DNA from: a virus
UHGV virus genome: UHGV-1364441
Length of the DNA: 64,000 bases
Reading direction: 5' to 3' (one strand)
Below are positions 2,887 through 25,606 of the stretch, piece after piece. Each line of letters starts with the position of its first letter. Within the stretch, counting starts at the first letter, position 1. Under the pieces are notes generated by a model that saw nothing but the letters and a program-made list of their open reading frames with translations, did not search any database and was not told the origin of the DNA. The position numbers were made by a program, and so were the translations under genes.

Positions 2887-4317
2887 TTACGGGTAAGAAA
2901 TGCTGAACGTTGAAGATTTCACGTCAAGATAAATGAAGTCATTAAAGTAAACAGCATCTTTCATATTTTGTATTGTTATGTCGTAAGACAGAAACATATC
3001 CAGAGACTCTATTACTCGCCAAATATCTTTAACTTTTACCTGTGCATAACATTGCTGGGAATCATCATCACTCTGTAGTAATAAACTGAATGATGACGAA
3101 TCACGGCCAAAATTATCTTCCAACGCTGCTTTAATAGCATTTTGAGCATCGTCTATCAGAACATTTTTACGTGCAATACCTATAAAATTTATAGTAAATG
3201 GCTGTTCATTTGTATCTACATACTCGAACCGCTTGTTCAACTCATTTGGAACATTCTCTAGAGCTTTCAGTATTTCTGATTTTAGCTGAGCCTGGCTTAC
3301 ACCCGGCTTATGTCCGCAAAAGAAAATTTTGTTGATGTTTCGAACGTCAAACCCAGTTATTTTCTCTTGTAACGCTTCGCCCCAAACGTTCAACCATGAA
3401 GTTCCATGAACAACATTCTGAATGAATTGGCGATAATCACCGCCCCATACCACTTGTTCATCGTATGCAACATAATACTGAGCACGATTTCGAGTTTCTT
3501 CTGTAGTTTCCATACCACTACCACCGGTAATGATCGAATCAGTTTTAAACTCAAGTGACTCCACATATTGAGCGATATTTCCAGCCGGTTCTAACTTTTG
3601 TCCTTCAGCCAAAGTATAGTCGCCAAGGCTAGCCATAACATCGATTCGAACCTGACAGCCTGCTGGAGGCATCATACCCATAGAACCATCACCAAACTTG
3701 ACTCCAAGTTGTTCTGTAGGTTTATATGCCAATGAATAGTGCTTACTCTTGTCTCTGGACATTCTAAATAATGGGTTATATGTCCATTTTTCTTCTACGC
3801 CATCTGTAATAACATAAACATCCAGGCTAGAGACTTCTTTTGTTAACTCTCTGGAAAGCAACAATGTCAGAAATAAAGTTTCCTTCTCAATATCAAATGT
3901 AACGCTAACAGCTTCATGCTGTTTAGTTTCTACGCCAGAAACTGTTCCTCCAGCAGGAATTACAACACTGTTAATAATTGCCAAAGGTGTTTGGTCATTG
4001 GCAAGCAATTCAGCCCCGGCTGGTAATGTAATATCCCGATCAGTTTTATTGGTTATAGACGTTGTTCCGTATGAAGCACTAACAAATCGCCCTACGTAGC
4101 TACGATCTTCAGCAACCGCTAAAATACTTGAGCGGCGCGTAGCCGTTGAAATAAGTCCCTCAGTGAGGCCGCGGCTTGCAAATGTACGGGCAATATAAAT
4201 AAGCTGTGATCCGAATATAGCGTGCATCTGCACAAACTGACTATTTACAAATCGTGACCACCATGTGTTTTCATTTAACTTAGCGTTAAATTTGTCCAGT
4301 AATTCTGTAATCGTCAC
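2887..4317 (-). CDS. putative baseplate J-like protein
   Basis: 476-aa ORF, size and position typical of baseplate J/gp47-like wedge protein in W-J-I-fibre order; 4-bp overlap with upstream gene. Confidence 0.5.
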   Translation of the reverse strand: MTITELLDKFNAKLNENTWWSRFVNSQFVQMHAIFGSQLIYIARTFASRGLTEGLISTATRRSSILAVAEDRSYVGRFVSASYGTTSITNKTDRDITLPAGAELLANDQTPLAIINSVVIPAGGTVSGVETKQHEAVSVTFDIEKETLFLTLLLSRELTKEVSSLDVYVITDGVEEKWTYNPLFRMSRDKSKHYSLAYKPTEQLGVKFGDGSMGMMPPAGCQVRIDVMASLGDYTLAEGQKLEPAGNIAQYVESLEFKTDSIITGGSGMETTEETRNRAQYYVAYDEQVVWGGDYRQFIQNVVHGTSWLNVWGEALQEKITGFDVRNINKIFFCGHKPGVSQAQLKSEILKALENVPNELNKRFEYVDTNEQPFTINFIGIARKNVLIDDAQNAIKAALEDNFGRDSSSFSLLLQSDDDSQQCYAQVKVKDIWRVIESLDMFLSYDITIQNMKDAVYFNDFIYLDVKSSTFSISYP

Positions 4318-4688
4318 GCGCCCACCCCACTTGATTTCTGCATAACAATATCCATGCTCCCACCTTTCGCATAAAAACTAATTAATAAAGAATCTTCAGA
4401 AATTGATGTGCAACGAATCCCCTGCACATCCAAACCTGGCAAGTCTTGCCGTAGTTTTTTCATCATTCTCCCTTCAATAGCCACTTCAACTATGTGCGAA
4501 GTTTCAGAGCCGAATGGTTCATGCTTAAATTCTTCCATTGGATTCCCCCAAGAGGGTAAACCATAAACACTCCCTTCAGGGGTTCGTAACCACTCGTCAA
4601 GTCGGGCCATCCATGCTGCGGTACTTCCTTCTGCAATAATGACACCGCTCTCATTCGTTTGAAGTCTTGCGTCTATTTCATAAAGCAT
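4314..4688 (-). CDS. putative baseplate W / gp25-like protein
   Basis: 124-aa ORF immediately upstream of J-like gene; size and order consistent with gpW/gp25 family. Confidence 0.45.
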   Translation of the reverse strand: MLYEIDARLQTNESGVIIAEGSTAAWMARLDEWLRTPEGSVYGLPSWGNPMEEFKHEPFGSETSHIVEVAIEGRMMKKLRQDLPGLDVQGIRCTSISEDSLLISFYAKGGSMDIVMQKSSGVGA

Positions 4689-9862: not shown

Positions 9863-10618
9863 ATGAACAGAGCGGAATTAACAGCAAAAGCCGTCAGCCT
9901 GATTGAGTCAGCGACACCTATTAGTCGTAGTTTGGCACAAGCCAATGAGATCACGGAGGCTGCTTATCACCTGACTCGCGACCAAAAGCGACTGTTGTTT
10001 ATTGTGGTGGGAAGACTTCGCTATGCTTCTAAGGATGGCGTTCTTGGTTCAGGTGCCTGTGAGTTGACGGTCAACGAATATGCAGAGATGTATAATTTGC
10101 CCTCTGCTGAAGCCAGCAAGGATATTCGTAAGGCCATTTCAGGGCTTAGCGAGAAGAAAGTTACGATATATAACCCTGATGAATCGACCGAATCAGAAGA
10201 CAGTTATGAGTCTTATCCTTGGATGATTAAGGATGCCTATTCACCACGGCGCGGGACTTACATTATTCATCTTAATCCATATCTCATGCCGTTTTTTACT
10301 CTGCTTGATAAGAGATTCACAAGGCTGAATTTTACCGAAGTATCTCGCCTTACAAATCCTTATTCTATGCGGCTTTATGAGTCCTTATGCCAGTACAGGA
10401 AGGATGATGGAAGCGGCTTTGCCATACTTGGCGTCGAATGGATGCGGGAGCGTTATGGGTTACCAAAAAGCTATCAGCGGTATGCCGAATTTAAGAGAAG
10501 TTTTTTAACGAAGGCTGTAGCAGAGATTGAAAAAAATACAAAAATGAAAATAGTCTTCTCAGAGGTGACGGAAGGCGGCAAAGTTACCAGGATAAAATTT
10601 ACCTATCAGCAGTCTTAA
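9863..10618 (+). CDS. repE: RepE/RepA-family (Rep_3) iteron-binding replication initiator
   Basis: Protein aligns along most of its length with F plasmid RepE as I recall it (TEAAY.L.RDQKR, AEASKDIR, YESxPW.IK, NPY.MRLYESLCQYRK.DGSG, LP.SYQR); start taken at MNRAEL (ORF track starts 9830). Confidence 0.9.
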   Translation: MNRAELTAKAVSLIESATPISRSLAQANEITEAAYHLTRDQKRLLFIVVGRLRYASKDGVLGSGACELTVNEYAEMYNLPSAEASKDIRKAISGLSEKKVTIYNPDESTESEDSYESYPWMIKDAYSPRRGTYIIHLNPYLMPFFTLLDKRFTRLNFTEVSRLTNPYSMRLYESLCQYRKDDGSGFAILGVEWMRERYGLPKSYQRYAEFKRSFLTKAVAEIEKNTKMKIVFSEVTEGGKVTRIKFTYQQS

Positions 10619-18665: not shown

Positions 18666-19124
18666 ATGAGTCACGCGAATCCATCAAAAACACAATATCG
18701 CTTAATGCTGGCGATCGCGTCAGCTATACCAACCAGCCTGAATCCCCCTGCTGGCTATCCCGCTGTTGTTGATGATTGTTTTCAGTATTACGGTGAAGAC
18801 ATTCTGGGACAGTCGAAAGCACTAAAACAGTTGTGCAAAGCCGGGATTCTTCACTGCATAGGCGATCCGGATGATTTTGTTGTCATGCTGGCAGATCGTG
18901 ACTCTTTTCTGCTGTCCTGGAAAGCCGGGGCGCGCGAAGCGCGTTTGGGGAATGGCATTGGCTACATAGACTATAGCGATTGCCCGCTGGCATTTGCTGG
19001 TGGATATATGCATTGGCATGAGCGAAATAGAGGCCGTCAGCGTCAGTATCGCTTGAGTGACTTTAACGTCTGTCACGGTTTCGAAGAAGCTGACAGCCAG
19101 GATATCTGGCTTCAGGAGCCGTGA
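18666..19124 (+). CDS. hypothetical protein
   Basis: 152-aa ORF following 18254 gene. Confidence 0.45.
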   Translation: MSHANPSKTQYRLMLAIASAIPTSLNPPAGYPAVVDDCFQYYGEDILGQSKALKQLCKAGILHCIGDPDDFVVMLADRDSFLLSWKAGAREARLGNGIGYIDYSDCPLAFAGGYMHWHERNRGRQRQYRLSDFNVCHGFEEADSQDIWLQEP

Positions 19125-19444
19125 TTACCCTTCCCTTCCCAAATCTCCCTATTCCTTTGGTTATTCAGTGCGTTTCGTTGGTTGCATTCATCGATCGTGC
19201 TGAATAACTGTTCAGTGTATGTTGGATACTTGTTTAACAGCACTGGCGTGTCCTCTGGCACCAGACAAGGGGAATAATCAATCAGATTTGCCTGCGGCTT
19301 GCTGGTGGCTTCTACGGTAATTTTCACTGGCACGCTGGTTGATGGCTTTTGCCCGTTCCCGCTGCATCCTGATAACGTCATCAGGCACACGCACATCGTT
19401 AATCCCAGCACGGCGTAACGCAGTTTCAAGACGAGTGATTTCAT
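19112..19444 (-). CDS. Rz1-like o-spanin lipoprotein (overlapped with Rz-like gene)
   Basis: Signal peptide with lipobox LSGC, Pro-rich mature part, starts inside the Rz-like gene in another frame. Confidence 0.55.
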   Translation of the reverse strand: MKSLVLKLRYAVLGLTMCVCLMTLSGCSGNGQKPSTSVPVKITVEATSKPQANLIDYSPCLVPEDTPVLLNKYPTYTEQLFSTIDECNQRNALNNQRNREIWEGKGNHGS

Positions 19445-19751
19445 TCTGGCTTTCCTCTCGTTGTTTGATTAGGTTGGCATTCAGTTCTGCTGTTTTGCGC
19501 TGGTACTCCTTTTCCAGTGCTTTAATTCTTTCGTTTTCGGTCAGCATGGCTGAGCGAGCGTTCTCACTTAACTGTAATGCGGTAGAAAGCGTGTTGTTCG
19601 TGCTTTCCAGTTGTGATTTTGAGTCTTCAAGCGATCGGACATACCTGATGTGTTCGATAACTGCCGTCGTTGTTCGGTAAATTCCAGAAATGGCTAAAAG
19701 CGCAATTACAATCAAAATTATCTTTTTCAAAACCATCCTCTCCAGGTTCAT
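19278..19751 (-). CDS. Rz-like i-spanin (lysis)
   Basis: N-terminal membrane anchor (KKIILIVIALLAISGIY), long coiled-coil region, overlapping +1-frame lipoprotein gene at its 3' end. Confidence 0.6.
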   Translation of the reverse strand: MNLERMVLKKIILIVIALLAISGIYRTTTAVIEHIRYVRSLEDSKSQLESTNNTLSTALQLSENARSAMLTENERIKALEKEYQRKTAELNANLIKQREESQNEITRLETALRRAGINDVRVPDDVIRMQRERAKAINQRASENYRRSHQQAAGKSD

Positions 19752-19806
19752 TTTTGGTGTTAAACATGTACCAATTTACATCCTTTTGTGTGCCTAAGTG
19801 GTGTTT

Positions 19807-20610
19807 CTATGGTTCCTTTTTGGTGTTCTTTTGGAGCGCATCGATAACGCCTTGTGGCATGATTAAACTGATTGCCGGACTCATTACTGCATCATCCAGT
19901 AGAGAACCAGTTAACGTGATGGCGACAGCGTTCTCTAAACCTTTGGTTGCCTGAGTGGTTGACGTTTTAATGCGACCTGTAAGGGCTACGACACCCTCAC
20001 TTGCTGAGTTAATTTCGGAGAGTAAAACTTCGGCGGCTGTCACTGCTTCCCGTAAAGCATCAATTTCATCCTGAGTAATGTCCGGAGCCTGTGTTGCCCC
20101 TCCACCAGCCTGTCCACCATCACTATCACCACCGGCACTCCCGGCAGCTTCAATTTTTGCGTTTATGGCGTTCATGGCGGTATTCAGATCGTCAAGTTTC
20201 AGCGCCGCCAATGCGTCCGTTAATGATTGCGGTATGGAAACATTCCCCATCCCCTCTACCAGGGCGAACGCTGGCGCGGGGATCAGTTCATTACCTTTTG
20301 CGTGGCACTCCCAGCCAATCTTCATCTGTAACAACTCTGATGGCGTGGTGTATGGGGAAAGAGAGTCAGCCAGTGATGAAGAAGACTTGCTGGCCTCATT
20401 GAGCTGTTCGGAAAATCCAAGCAATTGAGTCGTCCAGGCCGACACTGAATCAGGATAGGTTTTATCAGGGTGAACCATTTCCTGTATTGCGCTCGCGAGT
20501 GACGAGGCTTTTGAAGAAGCCGCCCGGCTTATGGTTATTGATTCCGGTGTGGAGGCACCAGCACCAGACAGAATTTGGAAGGCTTTAACTTCACCTATTG
20601 AATCAAGCAT
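19807..20610 (-). CDS. hypothetical protein (Ser/Ala/Gly-rich)
   Basis: 267-aa ORF translationally coupled to upstream PAAR-like gene. Confidence 0.45.
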   Translation of the reverse strand: MLDSIGEVKAFQILSGAGASTPESITISRAASSKASSLASAIQEMVHPDKTYPDSVSAWTTQLLGFSEQLNEASKSSSSLADSLSPYTTPSELLQMKIGWECHAKGNELIPAPAFALVEGMGNVSIPQSLTDALAALKLDDLNTAMNAINAKIEAAGSAGGDSDGGQAGGGATQAPDITQDEIDALREAVTAAEVLLSEINSASEGVVALTGRIKTSTTQATKGLENAVAITLTGSLLDDAVMSPAISLIMPQGVIDALQKNTKKEP

Positions 20611-20894
20611 TATGCGACCTGAAAAATATCCTCGCCGTTAGCGATAACAGAACCACAAGAAAGCGGATCGCCTACGCAGACTACTCCCTTTCCACCTATT
20701 GAATACCATGCCCGTGTCGATACAGCCGATCCGGGATGTGCACTGTTGCCATCTGTATGGCTGGGAAACATGGCACCATCCACAACAACTGGCTTACCGT
20801 TGACGGTGAACCATGGAACGGTTTCAGCTACCAGTCGCGGCGGAAATCCTCCGTGACCGGAACAAAGTGTGTCGCTGGTGGCTATTGCGCTCAT
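20610..20894 (-). CDS. PAAR-like repeat protein (putative spike tip)
   Basis: 94 aa with CSGHGG, VNGKPV, SCGSVIANG pattern resembling PAAR/gp5.4 spike-tip proteins; low-to-moderate confidence. Confidence 0.45.
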   Translation of the reverse strand: MSAIATSDTLCSGHGGFPPRLVAETVPWFTVNGKPVVVDGAMFPSHTDGNSAHPGSAVSTRAWYSIGGKGVVCVGDPLSCGSVIANGEDIFQVA

Positions 20895-20987
20895 TCTTCA
20901 TCTCCTGGTTATTCGCCTATTGTCATCACTTTGTTATTTCGTCACTCAAAGAGAGAGTGAAATCACGGAACATTTACAATTCCCGTT

Positions 20988-21157
20988 TTGTTCTCAAATT
21001 GTTCTCAAATTGTTCTCACTTCTATCCAAGTGCCCAGCAGGCGATTAAAGATATTCTCAAAACAACCTCAATTATGACTCTTATTTATCTCTAATTATGT
21101 GGATTTTCGATGCCTTCTCTTTTAAAATCATGATTTGATTCTCAAATGTGTCTCAGA
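20988..21157. repeat. parC-like centromere: three tandem 11-bp repeats (ttgttctcaaa) plus dispersed TTCTCAAA copies upstream of parM
   Basis: ttgttctcaaattgttctcaaattgttctcact at 20988-21020; further copies at ~21053 and ~21136 overlapping the parM promoter. Confidence 0.65.
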
Positions 21158-21171
21158 AGTGGAGCAAGAAG

Positions 21172-22128
21172 ATGCGCATTTTTATCGACGATGGTTCAAC
21201 AAATATCAAAATGCTGTGGGAACACGACGGGGAAACTCGCACGCACATCAGCCCTAACAGCTTTAAGCGCGGATGGTCAGCAACATTTGGTGCTGGCAAG
21301 ACATTTAACTATGTCATTGACGACGAAAAGTATTCGTATGATTTGATCTCGCCAGATGTTCTGCCGACGAATAACGTTGAATGGCAATACAGCCCGCTTA
21401 ACGTCCTGGCTGTTCACCACGCCCTGCTGACAAGTGGCATTGAGCCGCAGGAAGTAGAAATTGTGGTTACGCTGCCACTGGCGGAGTTTTACGACGACGA
21501 CGCGCAATACAATCTCGATAACATCGAGCGCAAGAAAGCCAGCCTTATGCGCCCCGTCACGCTGAATAAAGGCAATGTATTCACGATTAAGAAAGTCACG
21601 GTACGCCCGGAGTCTATTCCGGCAGGAATTGGCCTGTGCGACAATCTGACCCCTGCCCACTCTGTTCTTATCGTCGATTTGGGTGGAACTACCCTTGATG
21701 TTTCAATGGTCGCCGGGCAAATGACGGCAGTTTCCCGTGTTTTTGGCGATTCGAATCTTGGCGTCTCTCTGGTTACCAGGGAAGTAAGGCAAGCACTTGC
21801 CAGAGCCAATACCGAAACGTCAAATTACAATGTCGATCAGCTCATTATTAACCGCCACGATGAAGATTATCTGAACGACAATATCAATGACCCATCAGCT
21901 ATTGGTGATGTGAAAAAGGCCATTGCTGCAAGTATTGACCGTCTGCGTACCCGCGTTCTTGATGTGATTGGCGATTTTAAAGGATATACGCATGTCATGG
22001 TGATCGGTGGCGGCGCACCGCTGGTGGCTGATGCAATTCGCGAGCAAGTTAATATTCGCGATGACCGTTTCTTCGTGGCGGATGACCCGCAACTTGCTCT
22101 TGTTCATGGCCTGAAAGCAATCGGTTAA
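21172..22128 (+). CDS. parM: ParM/StbA actin-like plasmid segregation ATPase
   Basis: MRIFIDDGSTNIK..., HISPNSFK, ERKKA, PESIPAG, DLGGTTLD, YTHVMVIGGGA align with R1 ParM as I recall it; start at MRIF with GGAG RBS (ORF track starts 21148). Confidence 0.9.
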   Translation: MRIFIDDGSTNIKMLWEHDGETRTHISPNSFKRGWSATFGAGKTFNYVIDDEKYSYDLISPDVLPTNNVEWQYSPLNVLAVHHALLTSGIEPQEVEIVVTLPLAEFYDDDAQYNLDNIERKKASLMRPVTLNKGNVFTIKKVTVRPESIPAGIGLCDNLTPAHSVLIVDLGGTTLDVSMVAGQMTAVSRVFGDSNLGVSLVTREVRQALARANTETSNYNVDQLIINRHDEDYLNDNINDPSAIGDVKKAIAASIDRLRTRVLDVIGDFKGYTHVMVIGGGAPLVADAIREQVNIRDDRFFVADDPQLALVHGLKAIG

Positions 22129-22140
22129 CGAGGTATGTCC

Positions 22141-22479
22141 ATGTCTCAGGAACGTAAGAAAGTGATGATTTATCTTCGCCCAGGGGCTTATGCCAATGAA
22201 AAGGCGGCGAGCGAGAAGATAAAAAAACATAGCGATATGGCAAGAACTGCATTGTTGGCAGGGCTTGCGCTGGGAGAAGTCGATAGCAGGCTTCCTGGAT
22301 TACTGGCTTCCCTGCTGACCGAAGTCAATAACCCGGAGCAGATCCGAAAAATGCTGGCATCCTTCCTGGAATTACCTGCTGCTGTTGAGGAGCACCCTGC
22401 CGCCATTGAGCCAGCGAAGGAGCAAGTTGTTGCCAAAAGCGCGTCGGCGCGTAATCTTGCTGATTCTCTACCTGATTGA
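22141..22479 (+). CDS. parR: ParR-like centromere-binding protein
   Basis: Small gene immediately after parM; N-terminal region with ribbon-helix-helix-like pattern and ALLAGLAL segment resembling R1 ParR. Confidence 0.6.
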   Translation: MSQERKKVMIYLRPGAYANEKAASEKIKKHSDMARTALLAGLALGEVDSRLPGLLASLLTEVNNPEQIRKMLASFLELPAAVEEHPAAIEPAKEQVVAKSASARNLADSLPD

Positions 22480-22499
22480 TGGTCAAAACTCTATTTTAA

Positions 22500-22522
22500 G
22501 GCTGCAAATTGCAGCCTTTTTT
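22500..22522 (+). terminator. rho-independent terminator after parR
   Basis: ggctgca-aat-tgcagcc hairpin followed by tttttt. Confidence 0.7.
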
Positions 22523-22525
22523 GTT

Positions 22526-22740
22526 CCTTTTTGGTGTTAAAATGGCATCAAAGCGACACCAAATGGGAGTCGTTAATGTACTGGTGCATACTTGGTGCTA
22601 ATTTAGTGCTATTCAGGCGCAAAACGTGTACCAGTATCCATCGGATTTGATGTTATAGTTCCGGCATTAAGAATGGTGCTATTGCTGTACCGTTGATGTG
22701 TAAATGTGGTGCCGTTTTAGTGTAAAAATAGAGCCAAAAT
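22526..22740. repeat. array of degenerate TGGTGC / GGTACA hexamer-like boxes upstream of parA (putative second centromere/promoter)
   Basis: tttttggtgtta, gacaccaaa, tactggtgca, ttggtgcta, gtgtaccag, atggtgcta, gctgtaccg, tggtgccg; similar boxes recur at 23715-23800 and 19745-19830. Confidence 0.4.
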
Positions 22741-22751
22741 AAAGCCGAGGT

Positions 22752-23399
22752 ATGGACATGATTATCCTGGTAGCAAGTCAAAAGGGAGGCTGTGGCAAGT
22801 CAACCACCAGCGTCAATATTTGTGCCGAGCTGGCCCGAAAAAACAAAGATGTCGTCTTGATTGATGCTGATAAGCAGGGAACGGCAGCTCGATGGGCGTC
22901 AGACCGTAATTCGTCCGAAGTGACACCAGTTATTCATTGCGTCCAGAAGTTTGGAAATATTCGAGAAACTCTGCTCGATCTTAACAATCGATATGAATAC
23001 GTGGTTGTTGATACCGCAGGTCGTGATAGTAAAGAGATGCGCACAGGTATAACGGCGGCGGATATTCTATTGGTTCCATTCAGGCCGTCTCAGCCAGATT
23101 TGGACACGCTGGCACACTTTGTTGAGGTGTTTGAAGAGGCTTTGGATCTGATGCCTAATCCCAATATTAAGGCGTGCGCAGTCTTAACGATGGCCCCGTC
23201 AAATCCGGTTGTGAATGAAGCAAATGAGGCCAAAGAGTATCTGGCAGAATATCCGCAACTGAAATTGCTGAAAACCATTATTCGCGATCGCAAGGTTTAC
23301 CGCGACTGCATGGCTGAAGGAAAGGGTGTTGTTGAGATGGATAACGGTAAGGCGAAAGGTGAAATTCAGATGTTAGTTAAGGAGTTGCTAAGTGATTAA
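22752..23399 (+). CDS. parA: small ParA-family (type Ib) partition ATPase
   Basis: Deviant Walker A KGGCGKST, ~215 aa, followed by a small overlapping gene. Confidence 0.85.
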   Translation: MDMIILVASQKGGCGKSTTSVNICAELARKNKDVVLIDADKQGTAARWASDRNSSEVTPVIHCVQKFGNIRETLLDLNNRYEYVVVDTAGRDSKEMRTGITAADILLVPFRPSQPDLDTLAHFVEVFEEALDLMPNPNIKACAVLTMAPSNPVVNEANEAKEYLAEYPQLKLLKTIIRDRKVYRDCMAEGKGVVEMDNGKAKGEIQMLVKELLSD

Positions 23400-23676
23400 A
23401 CGTCGAGAACCAGCTAAAGCGCCTAAGGCTACTGATCCGGAACTTGAGCGAAGAATTGAAGAGTTCGCCAGCAAAGCGGATTTAATCCCGGATGAAATTA
23501 CAACGGGGAAGGTGCTTGATAAAGATGCGCCGCGCGACTTTAAATCCATACGCGTGAGCTTTAATGAATATGAGTACGGCGTACTCGATGATTTAAGCAA
23601 AAAACTGAACCGCAGCAAATTGAACTTGATTCGGCATGCAATCCTCATGTTAGCGGAGTCTGAGGAAGCAAAATAA
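23392..23676 (+). CDS. ParG-like small centromere-binding partner of ParA
   Basis: 94-aa gene, GTG start overlapping parA stop with AAGGAG RBS; basic N-terminus and C-terminal RHH-like segment (NLIRHAILMLAE). Confidence 0.5.
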   Translation: MIKRREPAKAPKATDPELERRIEEFASKADLIPDEITTGKVLDKDAPRDFKSIRVSFNEYEYGVLDDLSKKLNRSKLNLIRHAILMLAESEEAK

Positions 23677-23944
23677 TGTCTTTCAGGTTGGTTTTAGAAC
23701 TTAAAAATTCTTGAATCAAAGGTGTACCAATGTAGCACCGATTTGGTGCACCTTTACATCCTTTTTGGTGCCAATTGTGTACCATATAGCACTGGTTTAC
23801 TTATGAGCAGAAGTGGGCTTGATGAAAAAGCTCATTATTGAAATAACGATAGAAAGCAATTTCTAATCAACTAGTGGTTGTCAGCCTATTCGGCTTATAA
23901 GATCATACGCTGTTATACGTTTTTTACGCTTTGAGGAATCCACA

Positions 23945-25606
23945 ATGAGTGAGGCAGAAGCCCGCCCGACTAACTTTATTCGTCAGATCATCGATGAAGA
24001 TCTGGCAAGTGGTAAGCACACCACAGTACATACCCGTTTCCCGCCGGAACCGAATGGCTATCTGCATATTGGTCATGCGAAATCTATCTGCCTGAACTTC
24101 GGGATCGCCCAGGACTATAAAGGCCAGTGCAACCTGCGTTTCGACGACACTAACCCGGTAAAAGAAGATATCGAGTACGTCGAGTCGATTAAAAACGACG
24201 TTGAATGGTTAGGTTTTCACTGGTCTGGTAACGTCCGTTACTCCTCCGATTATTTTGATCAGCTCCACGCCTATGCTGTTGAACTGATCAACAAAGGCCT
24301 GGCGTATGTTGACGAACTGACGCCGGAACAGATCCGCGAATACCGCGGCACCCTGACGCAGCCGGGTAAAAACAGCCCGTACCGCGATCGCAGCGTTGAA
24401 GAGAACCTGGCGCTGTTCGAAAAAATGCGTGCCGGTGGTTTTGAAGAAGGTAAAGCCTGCCTGCGTGCGAAAATCGACATGGCGTCGCCGTTTATCGTGA
24501 TGCGCGATCCGGTGCTGTACCGCATTAAGTTTGCTGAACACCACCAGACTGGCAACAAGTGGTGCATCTACCCGATGTACGACTTCACCCACTGCATCAG
24601 CGATGCGCTGGAAGGTATTACGCACTCTCTGTGTACGCTTGAGTTCCAGGACAACCGTCGCCTGTACGACTGGGTGCTGGACAACATCACCATTCCTGTT
24701 CACCCGCGCCAGTACGAATTCTCGCGCCTGAATCTGGAATACACTGTGATGTCCAAGCGTAAGCTGAACCTGCTGGTGACCGACAAGCACGTTGAAGGCT
24801 GGGATGACCCGCGTATGCCGACCATTTCCGGTCTGCGTCGTCGTGGTTACACTGCGGCTTCTATTCGTGAGTTCTGCAAACGCATCGGCGTGACCAAGCA
24901 GGACAACACCATTGAGATGGCGTCGCTGGAATCCTGCATCCGTGAAGATCTCAACGAAAATGCGCCGCGCGCAATGGCGGTTATCGATCCGGTGAAACTG
25001 GTCATCGAAAACTATCAGGGAGAAGGCGAAATGGTCACCATGCCGAACCATCCAAACAAACCGGAAATGGGTAGCCGTCAGGTGCCGTTTAGCGGTGAGA
25101 TTTGGATCGACCGCGCCGATTTCCGAGAAGAAGCTAACAAGCAGTACAAACGTCTGGTGCTGGGTAAAGAAGTGCGTCTGCGTAATGCTTACGTCATTAA
25201 GGCTGAACGCGTGGAGAAAGATGCCGAAGGCAATATCACCACCATCTTCTGTACTTATGACGCCGACACCTTAAGCAAAGATCCGGCAGATGGTCGTAAA
25301 GTGAAAGGCGTTATTCACTGGGTGAGCGCGGCACATGCGCTGCCGGTTGAAATCCGCCTGTACGATCGTCTGTTCAGCGTGCCGAACCCAGGTGCTGCTG
25401 ATGATTTCCTGTCGGTGATTAACCCGGAATCGCTGGTGATCAAACAGGGTTTTGCTGAACCGTCGCTGAAAGAAGCGGTAGCGGGTAAAGCATTCCAGTT
25501 TGAGCGTGAAGGTTATTTCTGCCTCGACAGCCGCCATTCTACGGCGGAAAAACCGGTATTTAACCGCACCGTTGGGCTGCGTGATACCTGGGCGAAGTTA
25601 GGTTAA
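23945..25606 (+). CDS. glnS: glutaminyl-tRNA synthetase
   Basis: 553-aa protein with class I HIGH ([12 protein letters not shown]) and VMSKR motifs; matches enterobacterial GlnRS essentially end to end from memory; own promoter-like upstream region and terminator. Confidence 0.95.

Follow-up and report, generated by a model that had tools for sequence, protein, structure and literature searches.

The DNA considered here is a 64,000-nucleotide (nt) stretch of the virus genome UHGV-1364441, referred to below as the window, in which four genes and their presumed sites of action make up two plasmid partition systems of different types. The first is an actin-based type II system (par1, consisting of ParM, ParR and parC) and the second is a type Ib system (par2), which pairs a small ParA ATPase with a 94-amino-acid (aa) ribbon-helix-helix (RHH) partner. 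An initial annotation of the window, made by reading the sequence, had proposed that two partition systems of different types lie side by side, and this description stands, with four intact genes representing types II and Ib. That both systems are functional, side by side and in tandem, is likely. The features of the locus, with positions counted from the first letter of the window, are as follows.

20988-21155, plus strand: parC of par1, six (T)TCTCA boxes in an 11-base-pair (bp) register, flanking the presumed promoter
21100-21128, plus strand: presumed par1 promoter, placed by conservation, with -35 TGGATT, a 17-bp spacer and -10 TAAAAT
21172-22128, plus strand: parM, 318 aa, actin-like segregation ATPase, identified by Pfam and by alignment with R1 ParM
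22141-22479, plus strand: parR, 112 aa, centromere-binding protein of par1, beginning 13 nt past the parM stop
22498-22525, plus strand: intrinsic terminator after parR, found by a terminator scan, with a 9-bp stem (22498-22518), a 3-nt loop and a T run
22527-22725, no strand assigned: box array B, with nine or more TGGTRY boxes that precede parA and lie to either side of the presumed promoter
22651-22659, plus strand: presumed par2 extended -10 element, TGtTATAGT, placed by conservation and with a poor -35
22758-23399, plus strand: parA, 213 aa, small Walker-type (type Ib) partition ATPase, with ParF, NF041546 and PHROG matches
23392-23676, plus strand: gene of the 94-aa RHH partner, the presumed par2 centromere-binding protein, with a GTG start and AAGGAG 7 nt upstream
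23720-23795, no strand assigned: box array C, downstream of the RHH gene, where TGGTRY boxes number four by strict and eight by relaxed matching

The 3-kilobase (kb) region containing these features is 88% identical to Escherichia phage D6 (GenBank MF356679), with a like gene order, and 99.4% identical to the E. coli plasmid pTB423. It also matches 122 plasmid records, nearly all of which are about 90 kb in size, non-mobilizable and from E. coli, Salmonella or Shigella, and in 111 of these at least 80% of the 3-kb query is covered. On the strength of these matches the window is assigned to the D6-like phage-plasmids, which are relatives of P1. Such phage-plasmids occur widely in E. coli, Shigella and Salmonella, and a population study of a D6-like plasmid from Salmonella names parA, stbB and parM as its genes for partition (PMC6799933). 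In the D6 record the four genes, orf58 to orf61, are named 'StbA type plasmid stability protein', 'StbB type plasmid stability protein', 'hypothetical protein ... possible ParA partitioning function' and 'hypothetical protein', respectively, such that orf61, the counterpart of the RHH partner, carries no functional name, and the centromere sites are not annotated. Thus StbA, StbB and a possible ParA are already known from GenBank, and double par loci are a known kind of arrangement. What is new here is the identification of the RHH partner, a TGGTRY box of 11-bp period that occurs in three arrays, the presence of one of these arrays (array A) before a pair of spanin genes, and the independent exchange of the two cassettes.

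Anatomy of the par1 and par2 modules

The anatomy of the two modules matches the published definitions of type II and type Ib systems, respectively (PMC5016525, PMC3074162). For par1 the hallmarks are an actin-like ParM, a ParR gene downstream of it and a parC made of direct repeats, all of which are found, together with a promoter whose position is presumed. ParM matches the Pfam families StbA_N (232 bits) and ParM_N (186 bits), in both cases above the cut-off, and its residues 1-318 align with residues 1-319 of R1 ParM (4a62) at an E value of 1.4e-111, with an identity of about 55% as counted by eye on the alignment. Against the ParM of a pB171-type locus (L026) the identity is 43%; this locus was reached via the ParR fragment of a Protein Data Bank (PDB) alignment and stands in for pB171 in the comparisons made here. 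The start of parM is likely to be the ATG at 21172 rather than the GTG at 21148, because the former has GGAG 8 nt upstream and agrees with the D6 annotation; the parR start similarly agrees with the annotation of D6 orf59. ParR matches Pfam Plasmid_stab_B (PF10784) with 42.6 bits, where the cut-off is 25, and the pB171 ParR structure 2jd3 with an E value of 6e-6.

The centromere of par1 is recognisable by its repeats. Tandem Repeats Finder reports 2.8 copies of the unit TTGTTCTCAAA at 20988-21018, with a period of 11 and a 100% match, and exact matches to TTCTCAAAT number four in the 64 kb, three of them inside the 160-bp parC. The (T)TCTCA boxes, designated repeat family D3, stand at 20991, 21002 and 21013, where they are in tandem and 11 bp apart, and again at 21054, 21139 and 21150. 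The initial annotation had described a ParM/ParR module with an 11-bp tandem-repeat parC, and the period as well as the Pfam and PDB matches bear this out; parC is, in addition, wider than the tandem repeat and reaches to about 21155. In D6 and other relatives the boxes are retained and the spacers have diverged. A strongly divergent case is L006, whose parM has a synonymous divergence (dS) from the window of about 1.9 and whose parR is invisible to blastn: here TCTCA/TCTCT boxes are found at 11-bp spacing, along with extra TCTCT boxes, and the divergent ParR allele retains the N-terminal strand and a C-terminal NLA(D/N)SLPD tail. The two hexamer blocks of the presumed promoter, TGGATT and TAAAAT, are kept between the window and D6, and the spacer between them differs. 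The strong terminator that separates the par1 and par2 operons is invariant in the same comparison.

The second module is placed in type Ib by its ATPase, a small Walker-type ParA that lacks the N-terminal helix-turn-helix domain of type Ia proteins and carries the deviant Walker A motif KGGCGKST. Its residues 4-211 align with residues 5-202 of TP228 ParF (4dzz; E 1.3e-17), its residues 2-209 span positions 1-203 of the 203-position NCBIfam model NF041546 ('ParA family partition ATPase'), and it matches PHROG 164 ('ParA-like partition protein'). Similarity to delta' of pSM19035 (2oze; E 4e-4) is limited to a short stretch. To the ParA of the pB171-type locus it is 43% identical over its full length (E 1e-58).

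What, then, is the partner of this ATPase? The gene that follows parA overlaps its end by 8 nt and encodes a 94-aa protein that has no significant sequence match in Pfam (at E values up to 0.1), NCBIfam or the PDB, and for which a word-index homologue search returned D6-like relatives only. An exhaustive profile search, on the other hand, recovered 125 cluster representatives, almost all of 54-100 aa, with the few longer members being multi-domain proteins. The alignment of 83 family members opens with an N-terminal M-V/I-K-x-R motif, continues through a short helix (IExFAxxAD) and a variable linker, and closes with the conserved C-terminal block FKxIRVPFNEYEYxxL...GRSKLNxIRxAI. Matches to RHH families of Pfam occur within these 83 members, 15 of them (weakly) to NikA-like, six to RHH_1 and six to DUF6290. 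With this deep alignment AlphaFold2 gives a model of mean predicted local distance difference test (pLDDT) score 86.6, in which 10-residue blocks over residues 41-90 average 92-99, and in which an extended segment is followed by helices at 59-72 and 76-93; the model yields ribbon-helix-helix fold matches. With only 11 close homologues in the alignment the model had been of low quality (mean pLDDT 58.8), and it was set aside. Type Ib centromere-binding proteins consist of a flexible tail plus a C-terminal RHH domain (PMC3074162), and because the model of the 94-aa protein has both, its predicted architecture is that of a type Ib centromere-binding protein. Neither the protein itself nor any of the 83 family members matches Pfam ParG. 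Exact-sequence look-ups of ten family members led to 'hypothetical' or unnamed entries in every case. The product of the gene is a likely candidate for an RHH centromere-binding protein, from an unnamed and widespread family. At the N-terminus the M-V/I-K-x-R-R sequence is conserved over the 83-member alignment, and the unrelated ParB of the pB171-type locus (L026, 1871-2146, minus strand) begins MVKKPS.

An alternative reading is that ParA and its RHH partner are accessory to DNA processing, in the manner of VirC1/VirC2 or of a relaxosome (NikA-like), and do not form a partition system. ParA does match VirC1 models, at E 7e-14 in Pfam and 4.5e-15 in NCBIfam, but the score of 55.7 bits compares with a cut-off of 313, and the ParA partition model scores 162 bits on the same protein; moreover, its 43% identity is to a ParA of the pB171 type, and pB171 par2 is a proven partition system (PMC4270457). 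As for the weak NikA-like matches of 15 of the 83 family members, NikA-like, CopG and TacA proteins all share the RHH fold, so that such matches are unspecific for function. D6-like plasmids are typed as non-mobilizable in 120 of the 122 records, and in the Aeromonas plasmid pAsa5 the pair lies beside repA. A role in DNA processing is accordingly rejected as hardly credible, and a partition ATPase with a candidate centromere-binding partner is the reading followed below.

The TGGTRY boxes and array A

The DNA around par2 is populated by short boxes, which were counted as T[GA]GT[GA][CT] on both strands in 150-bp sliding windows over the whole 64 kb. The three densest clusters are array B (9 boxes observed against 0.58 expected), array C (4 against 0.22) and array A at 19750-19830 (4 against 0.23), with Poisson probabilities of 1e-8, 8e-5 and 1e-4, respectively, and longer repeat units (families D1, D2 and D4) link array A with arrays B and C. 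The initial annotation had seen arrays of TGGTGC/GGTACA-like boxes on both sides of par2 and the same motif near 19745-19830. Both the flanking arrays and the outlying cluster are confirmed as arrays B, C and A, but the motif is better written as TGGTRY, repeated at 11 bp. A pool of 117 distinct box instances, drawn from six diverse D6-like elements, reads T-G-G-T-R-Y with AT-rich flanks. Spacings between boxes on the same strand peak at 11, 22 and 33 bp (37, 28 and 17 counts) with hardly any between, and those between boxes on opposite strands fall at 11n+2 and 11n-2. The 11-bp peaks therefore point to one box per helical turn, on a single face of the DNA.

Conservation picks out the boxes from their surroundings. 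Array B is only 50-67% identical to D6, yet its boxes are kept in D6 and in three further relatives (L003, L006 and L019), and a TGnTATA(C/G)T element lies at the same place, between two sub-arrays, in all six of the diverse D6-like elements. By analogy with other type Ib systems (PMC3074162), boxes on both sides of this presumed par2 promoter would give autorepression. At the position of array C, box arrays persist in relatives where the downstream sequence is unrelated (L003, L004, L006 and L019). These four lack the glnS gene that follows array C in the window, and a terminator-like hairpin follows the array instead.

The association between box and protein extends well beyond the D6-like elements. 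Among the 40 plasmid records listed by tblastn, the RHH gene adjoins a ParA-type ATPase in 38, the remaining two having a hypothetical protein alone and no feature, respectively; the pairs listed include those on conjugative plasmids of Serratia, Aeromonas (pAsa5), Arsenophonus and Marinobacter. A GGTRC core recurs in non-coding DNA near these homologues, as CCTTTTTGGTACCAAAAAGG and TTTAGTGC in pAsa5 and as TTTTGGTACCAAA in Arsenophonus. Boxes are enriched upstream of the homologues in Aeromonas (P 3e-6) and Arsenophonus (P 8e-4) and marginally so in Serratia (P 0.02), and downstream enrichment is clear only in Arsenophonus (P 0.009). It is mainly because the box travels with the RHH gene across genera that the TGGTRY boxes are predicted to be the sites of the 94-aa RHH protein. 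The possibility that they are C1 operators or sites for a host factor was given no weight, as the boxes accompany the RHH gene into unrelated plasmids.

Gene identity and integrity, purifying selection, the fold model and the enrichment, phasing and conservation of the boxes are observed, and on this basis a mechanism can be proposed for each module. In par1, ParR dimers would occupy the (T)TCTCA boxes that parC carries, in 11-bp phase, to either side of the promoter, and the resulting ParR-parC complex would both repress the operon and cap ParM filaments that push sister plasmids apart. In par2, dimers of the 94-aa RHH protein would bind the TGGTRY boxes of arrays B and C, one per helical turn, with the overlap between array B and the par2 promoter leading to autorepression. 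The basic N-terminal tail of the RHH protein (MIKRRE...) would then stimulate the ATPase of nucleoid-bound ParA, resulting in plasmid positioning and, as with par1, in stabilisation of the plasmid. The N-terminal tip that the RHH partner has in common with the pB171-type ParB may be the part that contacts ParA or stimulates its ATPase. Array A would bind the same RHH protein, either as an extra centromere site or as an operator.

Array A and the genes beside it comprise the following features.

19750-19830, no strand assigned: box array A, four TGGTRY boxes, at 19755 (plus), 19768 (minus), 19799 (plus) and 19821 (plus)
19278-19736 and 19112-19444, minus strand: overlapping Rz-like spanin pair, PHROG 214/89 and 456

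Array A spans the junction between the upfB stop and the spanin start, about 2.7 kb from array B, and sits on the far side of the ParMRC module from par2. Both spanin-like open reading frames (ORFs) are annotated in D6 as 'hypothetical protein'; an N-terminal membrane anchor and a coiled coil mark one of them, and an LSGC lipobox the other. Conservation within the short non-coding stretch of the junction, compared over 19 distinct D6-like sequences, coincides exactly with the boxes, and the spacers vary by lineage, with one relative (L003) having extra boxes at 11-bp spacing. Array A most likely binds the same protein as arrays B and C, namely the 94-aa RHH protein.

Two roles can be envisaged for such binding. 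One proposal is that array A is no centromere and acts as an operator or roadblock, through which the par2 RHH protein silences the adjacent spanin genes in the plasmid-prophage state. The box closest to the i-spanin ORF ends 4 nt short of its first ATG, the genes concerned are Rz-like spanins, and the boxes at the junction are conserved in all 19 distinct D6-like sequences. There is also precedent, in that omega of pSM19035 has three separate binding sites, which overlap three different promoters, and the phage-plasmid N15 has scattered centromere sites (PMC5016525). On the other side, no sigma-70-like promoter was found when array A was scanned on the spanin strand, although late genes of the P1 type use Lpa-dependent promoters, which lie outside such a scan, and an array of just four boxes suits an accessory centromere equally. 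DNA and UpfB protein searches found no upfB-spanin junction from an element without par2, in searches that did not reach P1. In favour of the operator reading, the Sop system of N15 reportedly affects late gene expression (Ravin, Rech and Lane 2008). Overall a purely operator role is considered somewhat unlikely. The fuller proposal, in which the RHH protein has a conserved third target in array A that works either as a repressor or roadblock of the lysis genes or as part of a distributed centromere bracketing par1, is speculative and has to be regarded as unlikely.

Integrity, selection and cassette exchange

None of the four par ORFs is shortened in the window, and nearly all of 20 related loci likewise carry them at full length. 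Ratios of nonsynonymous to synonymous divergence (dN/dS) against the window are 0.02-0.15 for parM in intact relatives and 0.09-0.26 for parR in comparisons with a dS of 0.1 or more; for parA they are about 0.00-0.05 and for the RHH gene, at unsaturated dS, 0.07-0.13. Taken together, the ratio is given as 0.02-0.26 for every comparison with a dS large enough for an estimate. The ratio of 0.94 for the near-identical parR of L004 is meaningless at a dS of 0.013. Even at high synonymous divergence the ratios remain low, at 0.02 for parA with a dS of about 1.2 and at 0.02 for parM with a dS of up to 2. The initial annotation had pointed to pseudogenisation as the possible weakness of either module; with full-length ORFs and low dN/dS throughout, neither is pseudogenised and both are under purifying selection.

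Alongside this constraint the locus has a mosaic history. Compared with D6 (L001), both flanks of the window are at least 95% identical and identity drops to 50-90% over about 22490-23600, a stretch made up of array B, parA and the N-terminal half of the RHH gene; parC is 70-86% identical. The corresponding nucleotide identities are 84% for parA and 73% for the RHH gene, and dS is about 1.2 for parA and about 0.2 for parM. In L003, parA is 96% identical and the RHH gene only 76%, and in L006, L007, L010 and L020 it is par1 that is the replaced or divergent cassette. This pattern suggests, therefore, that the par1 and par2 cassettes have been exchanged independently of one another. Among D6-like homologues the RHH domain hardly varies in protein sequence, and in the comparison with D6 arrays A and C have likewise stayed conserved. 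A related reading is that the ParA gene and the N-terminal tail of its partner are swapped as a cassette, with the DNA-binding domain and arrays A and C held constant. Centromere specificity would then be kept while the pairing of ParA and tail changes, which fits selection on incompatibility or on the matching of motor and adaptor.

A number of observations weigh against two working systems. The consensus promoter scan calls a plus-strand promoter for neither par operon, and the presumed sites fall below its threshold. The 162 bits of ParA lie below the cut-off of 180 for NF041546, and by the NCBI threshold it ranks as a relative of that family and not as an equivalog. No characterised centromere-binding protein is significantly similar in sequence to the 94-aa RHH protein: a comparison by hhalign with the ParG sequence, itself verified against 1p94, gives a probability of 12.8% and an E value of 0.0022, keeping register over the RHH without reaching significance, and comparison with the pB171-type ParB gives a BLASTP E value of 0.13 and an hhalign probability of 0.7%. 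The initial annotation's small ParA with a ParG-like partner thus survives as regards the ATPase and the fold and architecture of the partner, but not as regards membership of the ParG sequence family. Downstream arrays are not clearly enriched beside the Serratia (P 0.12) and Aeromonas (P 0.3) homologues, which is why two-sided flanking is to be taken as a D6-like feature and no family-wide rule. Array A may be an extra centromere site or an operator, and its four boxes fit either. The searchable literature yielded no experiment on this or on another D6-like par locus. Finally, in the D6-like relative L018, from a viral contig collection, the ParM frame (3407-4362) is truncated at 183 aa, making it possible that this is a natural par1 knockout that still keeps par2, and therefore that a single system may be sufficient.

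The last point leads to the suggestion that only one module drives segregation, with the other either redundant baggage or retained mainly as a transcriptional regulator. That the contig with the 183-aa ParM is still present in the collection speaks for this, as does the independent swapping of the cassettes, which looks as if each were dispensable during replacement. Such redundancy is difficult to reconcile, though, with strong purifying selection on all four genes at high synonymous divergence, and with the presence of both modules together in essentially all D6-like plasmids found (the 111 of 122 records with at least 80% coverage). Double par loci in which both systems work are also documented, pB171 with its par2 being an example (PMC4270457), and two working par systems are also reported for Shigella pINV, in the title of PMC6519299. 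A single active module is consequently viewed as very unlikely, and two functional systems, par1 of type II and par2 of type Ib, remain the preferred explanation.

Relation to known systems and biological meaning

Among characterised plasmids the arrangement most readily recalls pB171, a resemblance noted in the initial annotation, and it is instructive to see how far this goes. In both cases a type II and a type Ib system are adjacent, the ParA and ParM proteins are each 43% identical (with L026 standing for pB171) and ParR matches 2jd3. The type Ib genes are flanked upstream and downstream by arrays of short boxes, as in the parC1-parA-parB-parC2 order of pB171 (PMC4270457), and both small partners have a C-terminal RHH and start M-V/I-K-K/R. 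The likeness does not extend to layout, to the ParB protein or to the boxes. The operons of L026 are divergent around a shared parC1, whereas those of the window are in tandem on the same strand, with a terminator between them and with separate cis sites; the centromere-binding proteins are without sequence similarity; and the boxes, TGGTRY in the window, are by eye TCACA/TTCATA-like in L026, with the window having in addition a third array 2.7 kb away.

The individual modules also resemble other systems. The ParF-ParG-parH system of TP228 similarly combines a small Walker ATPase with a small partner that has a flexible N-terminal tail and a C-terminal RHH, and its upstream centromere/operator is built of short degenerate boxes with AT-rich spacers (PMC3130281, PMC3074162). 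The partner in the window, however, is outside the ParG sequence family, and the tetramer boxes of TP228 contrast with hexamers on an 11-bp period, in two-sided arrays plus a remote one. With R1 ParMRC, par1 shares a full-length ParM of about 55% identity and 11-bp direct repeats split around the promoter (PMC5016525). It differs in having six boxes (3+1+2) where R1 has ten iterons (5+5, as given by the title of Dam and Gerdes 1994, cited in PMC5016525), and in a ParR that is closer to the pB171/StbB family. In the delta/omega system of pSM19035 an RHH protein also acts on arrays of direct and inverted short repeats at several sites, some of them over the promoters of other genes (PMC5016525), and this multi-site behaviour of omega provides the precedent for array A. 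There is no sequence relationship between the two, and the pSM19035 system belongs to Gram-positive hosts, uses heptad repeats and has its genes transcribed separately. The locus of phage D6 is the same locus, the difference being that the window carries a divergent par2 allele between flanks of at least 95% identity.

The wider setting in the window is given by three further genes.

9863-10618, plus strand: repA, the plasmid replication gene, 99.9% identical to D6 orf42 and located among tail genes
20610-20894, minus strand: upfC-like gene just upstream of parC, encoding a PAAR-motif protein (PHROG 281; RefSeq 'PAAR domain-containing protein')
23945-25606, plus strand: glnS, full-length glutaminyl-tRNA synthetase, directly downstream of array C and already known in D6-like elements

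The upfC-like product is presumably a tail-spike tip protein. An Rfam scan of 19000-24200 found no known RNA family. In P1, repA, parA and parB are contiguous. The D6-like elements, by comparison, have a different and doubled partition apparatus about 10 kb from repA, so that replication and partition are unlinked. The initial annotation's contrast with the single ParAB of P1 holds as far as it was checked, in that the D6 annotation lists no further par gene in the stretches 1-50,000 and 52,881-91,159.

The double par locus of the D6-like elements leaves the general understanding of partition unchanged, and its significance lies closer to the elements themselves. With a named 94-aa candidate and a box motif, par2 becomes directly testable, and the same features offer markers for par-based incompatibility typing of D6-like elements. 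The 94-aa family, at present 'hypothetical', gains a plausible role, and one that reaches beyond phage-plasmids, since members are found on ordinary plasmids of Serratia, Aeromonas and Arsenophonus. If the cassette swap is as described, it would let D6-like elements change their motor-adaptor pairing with centromere specificity unchanged. If array A belongs to a distributed centromere of three arrays, both segregation machines would act on one higher-order complex; and if it serves to repress the lysis genes in the plasmid-prophage state, plasmid maintenance would be coupled to the lysis decision.

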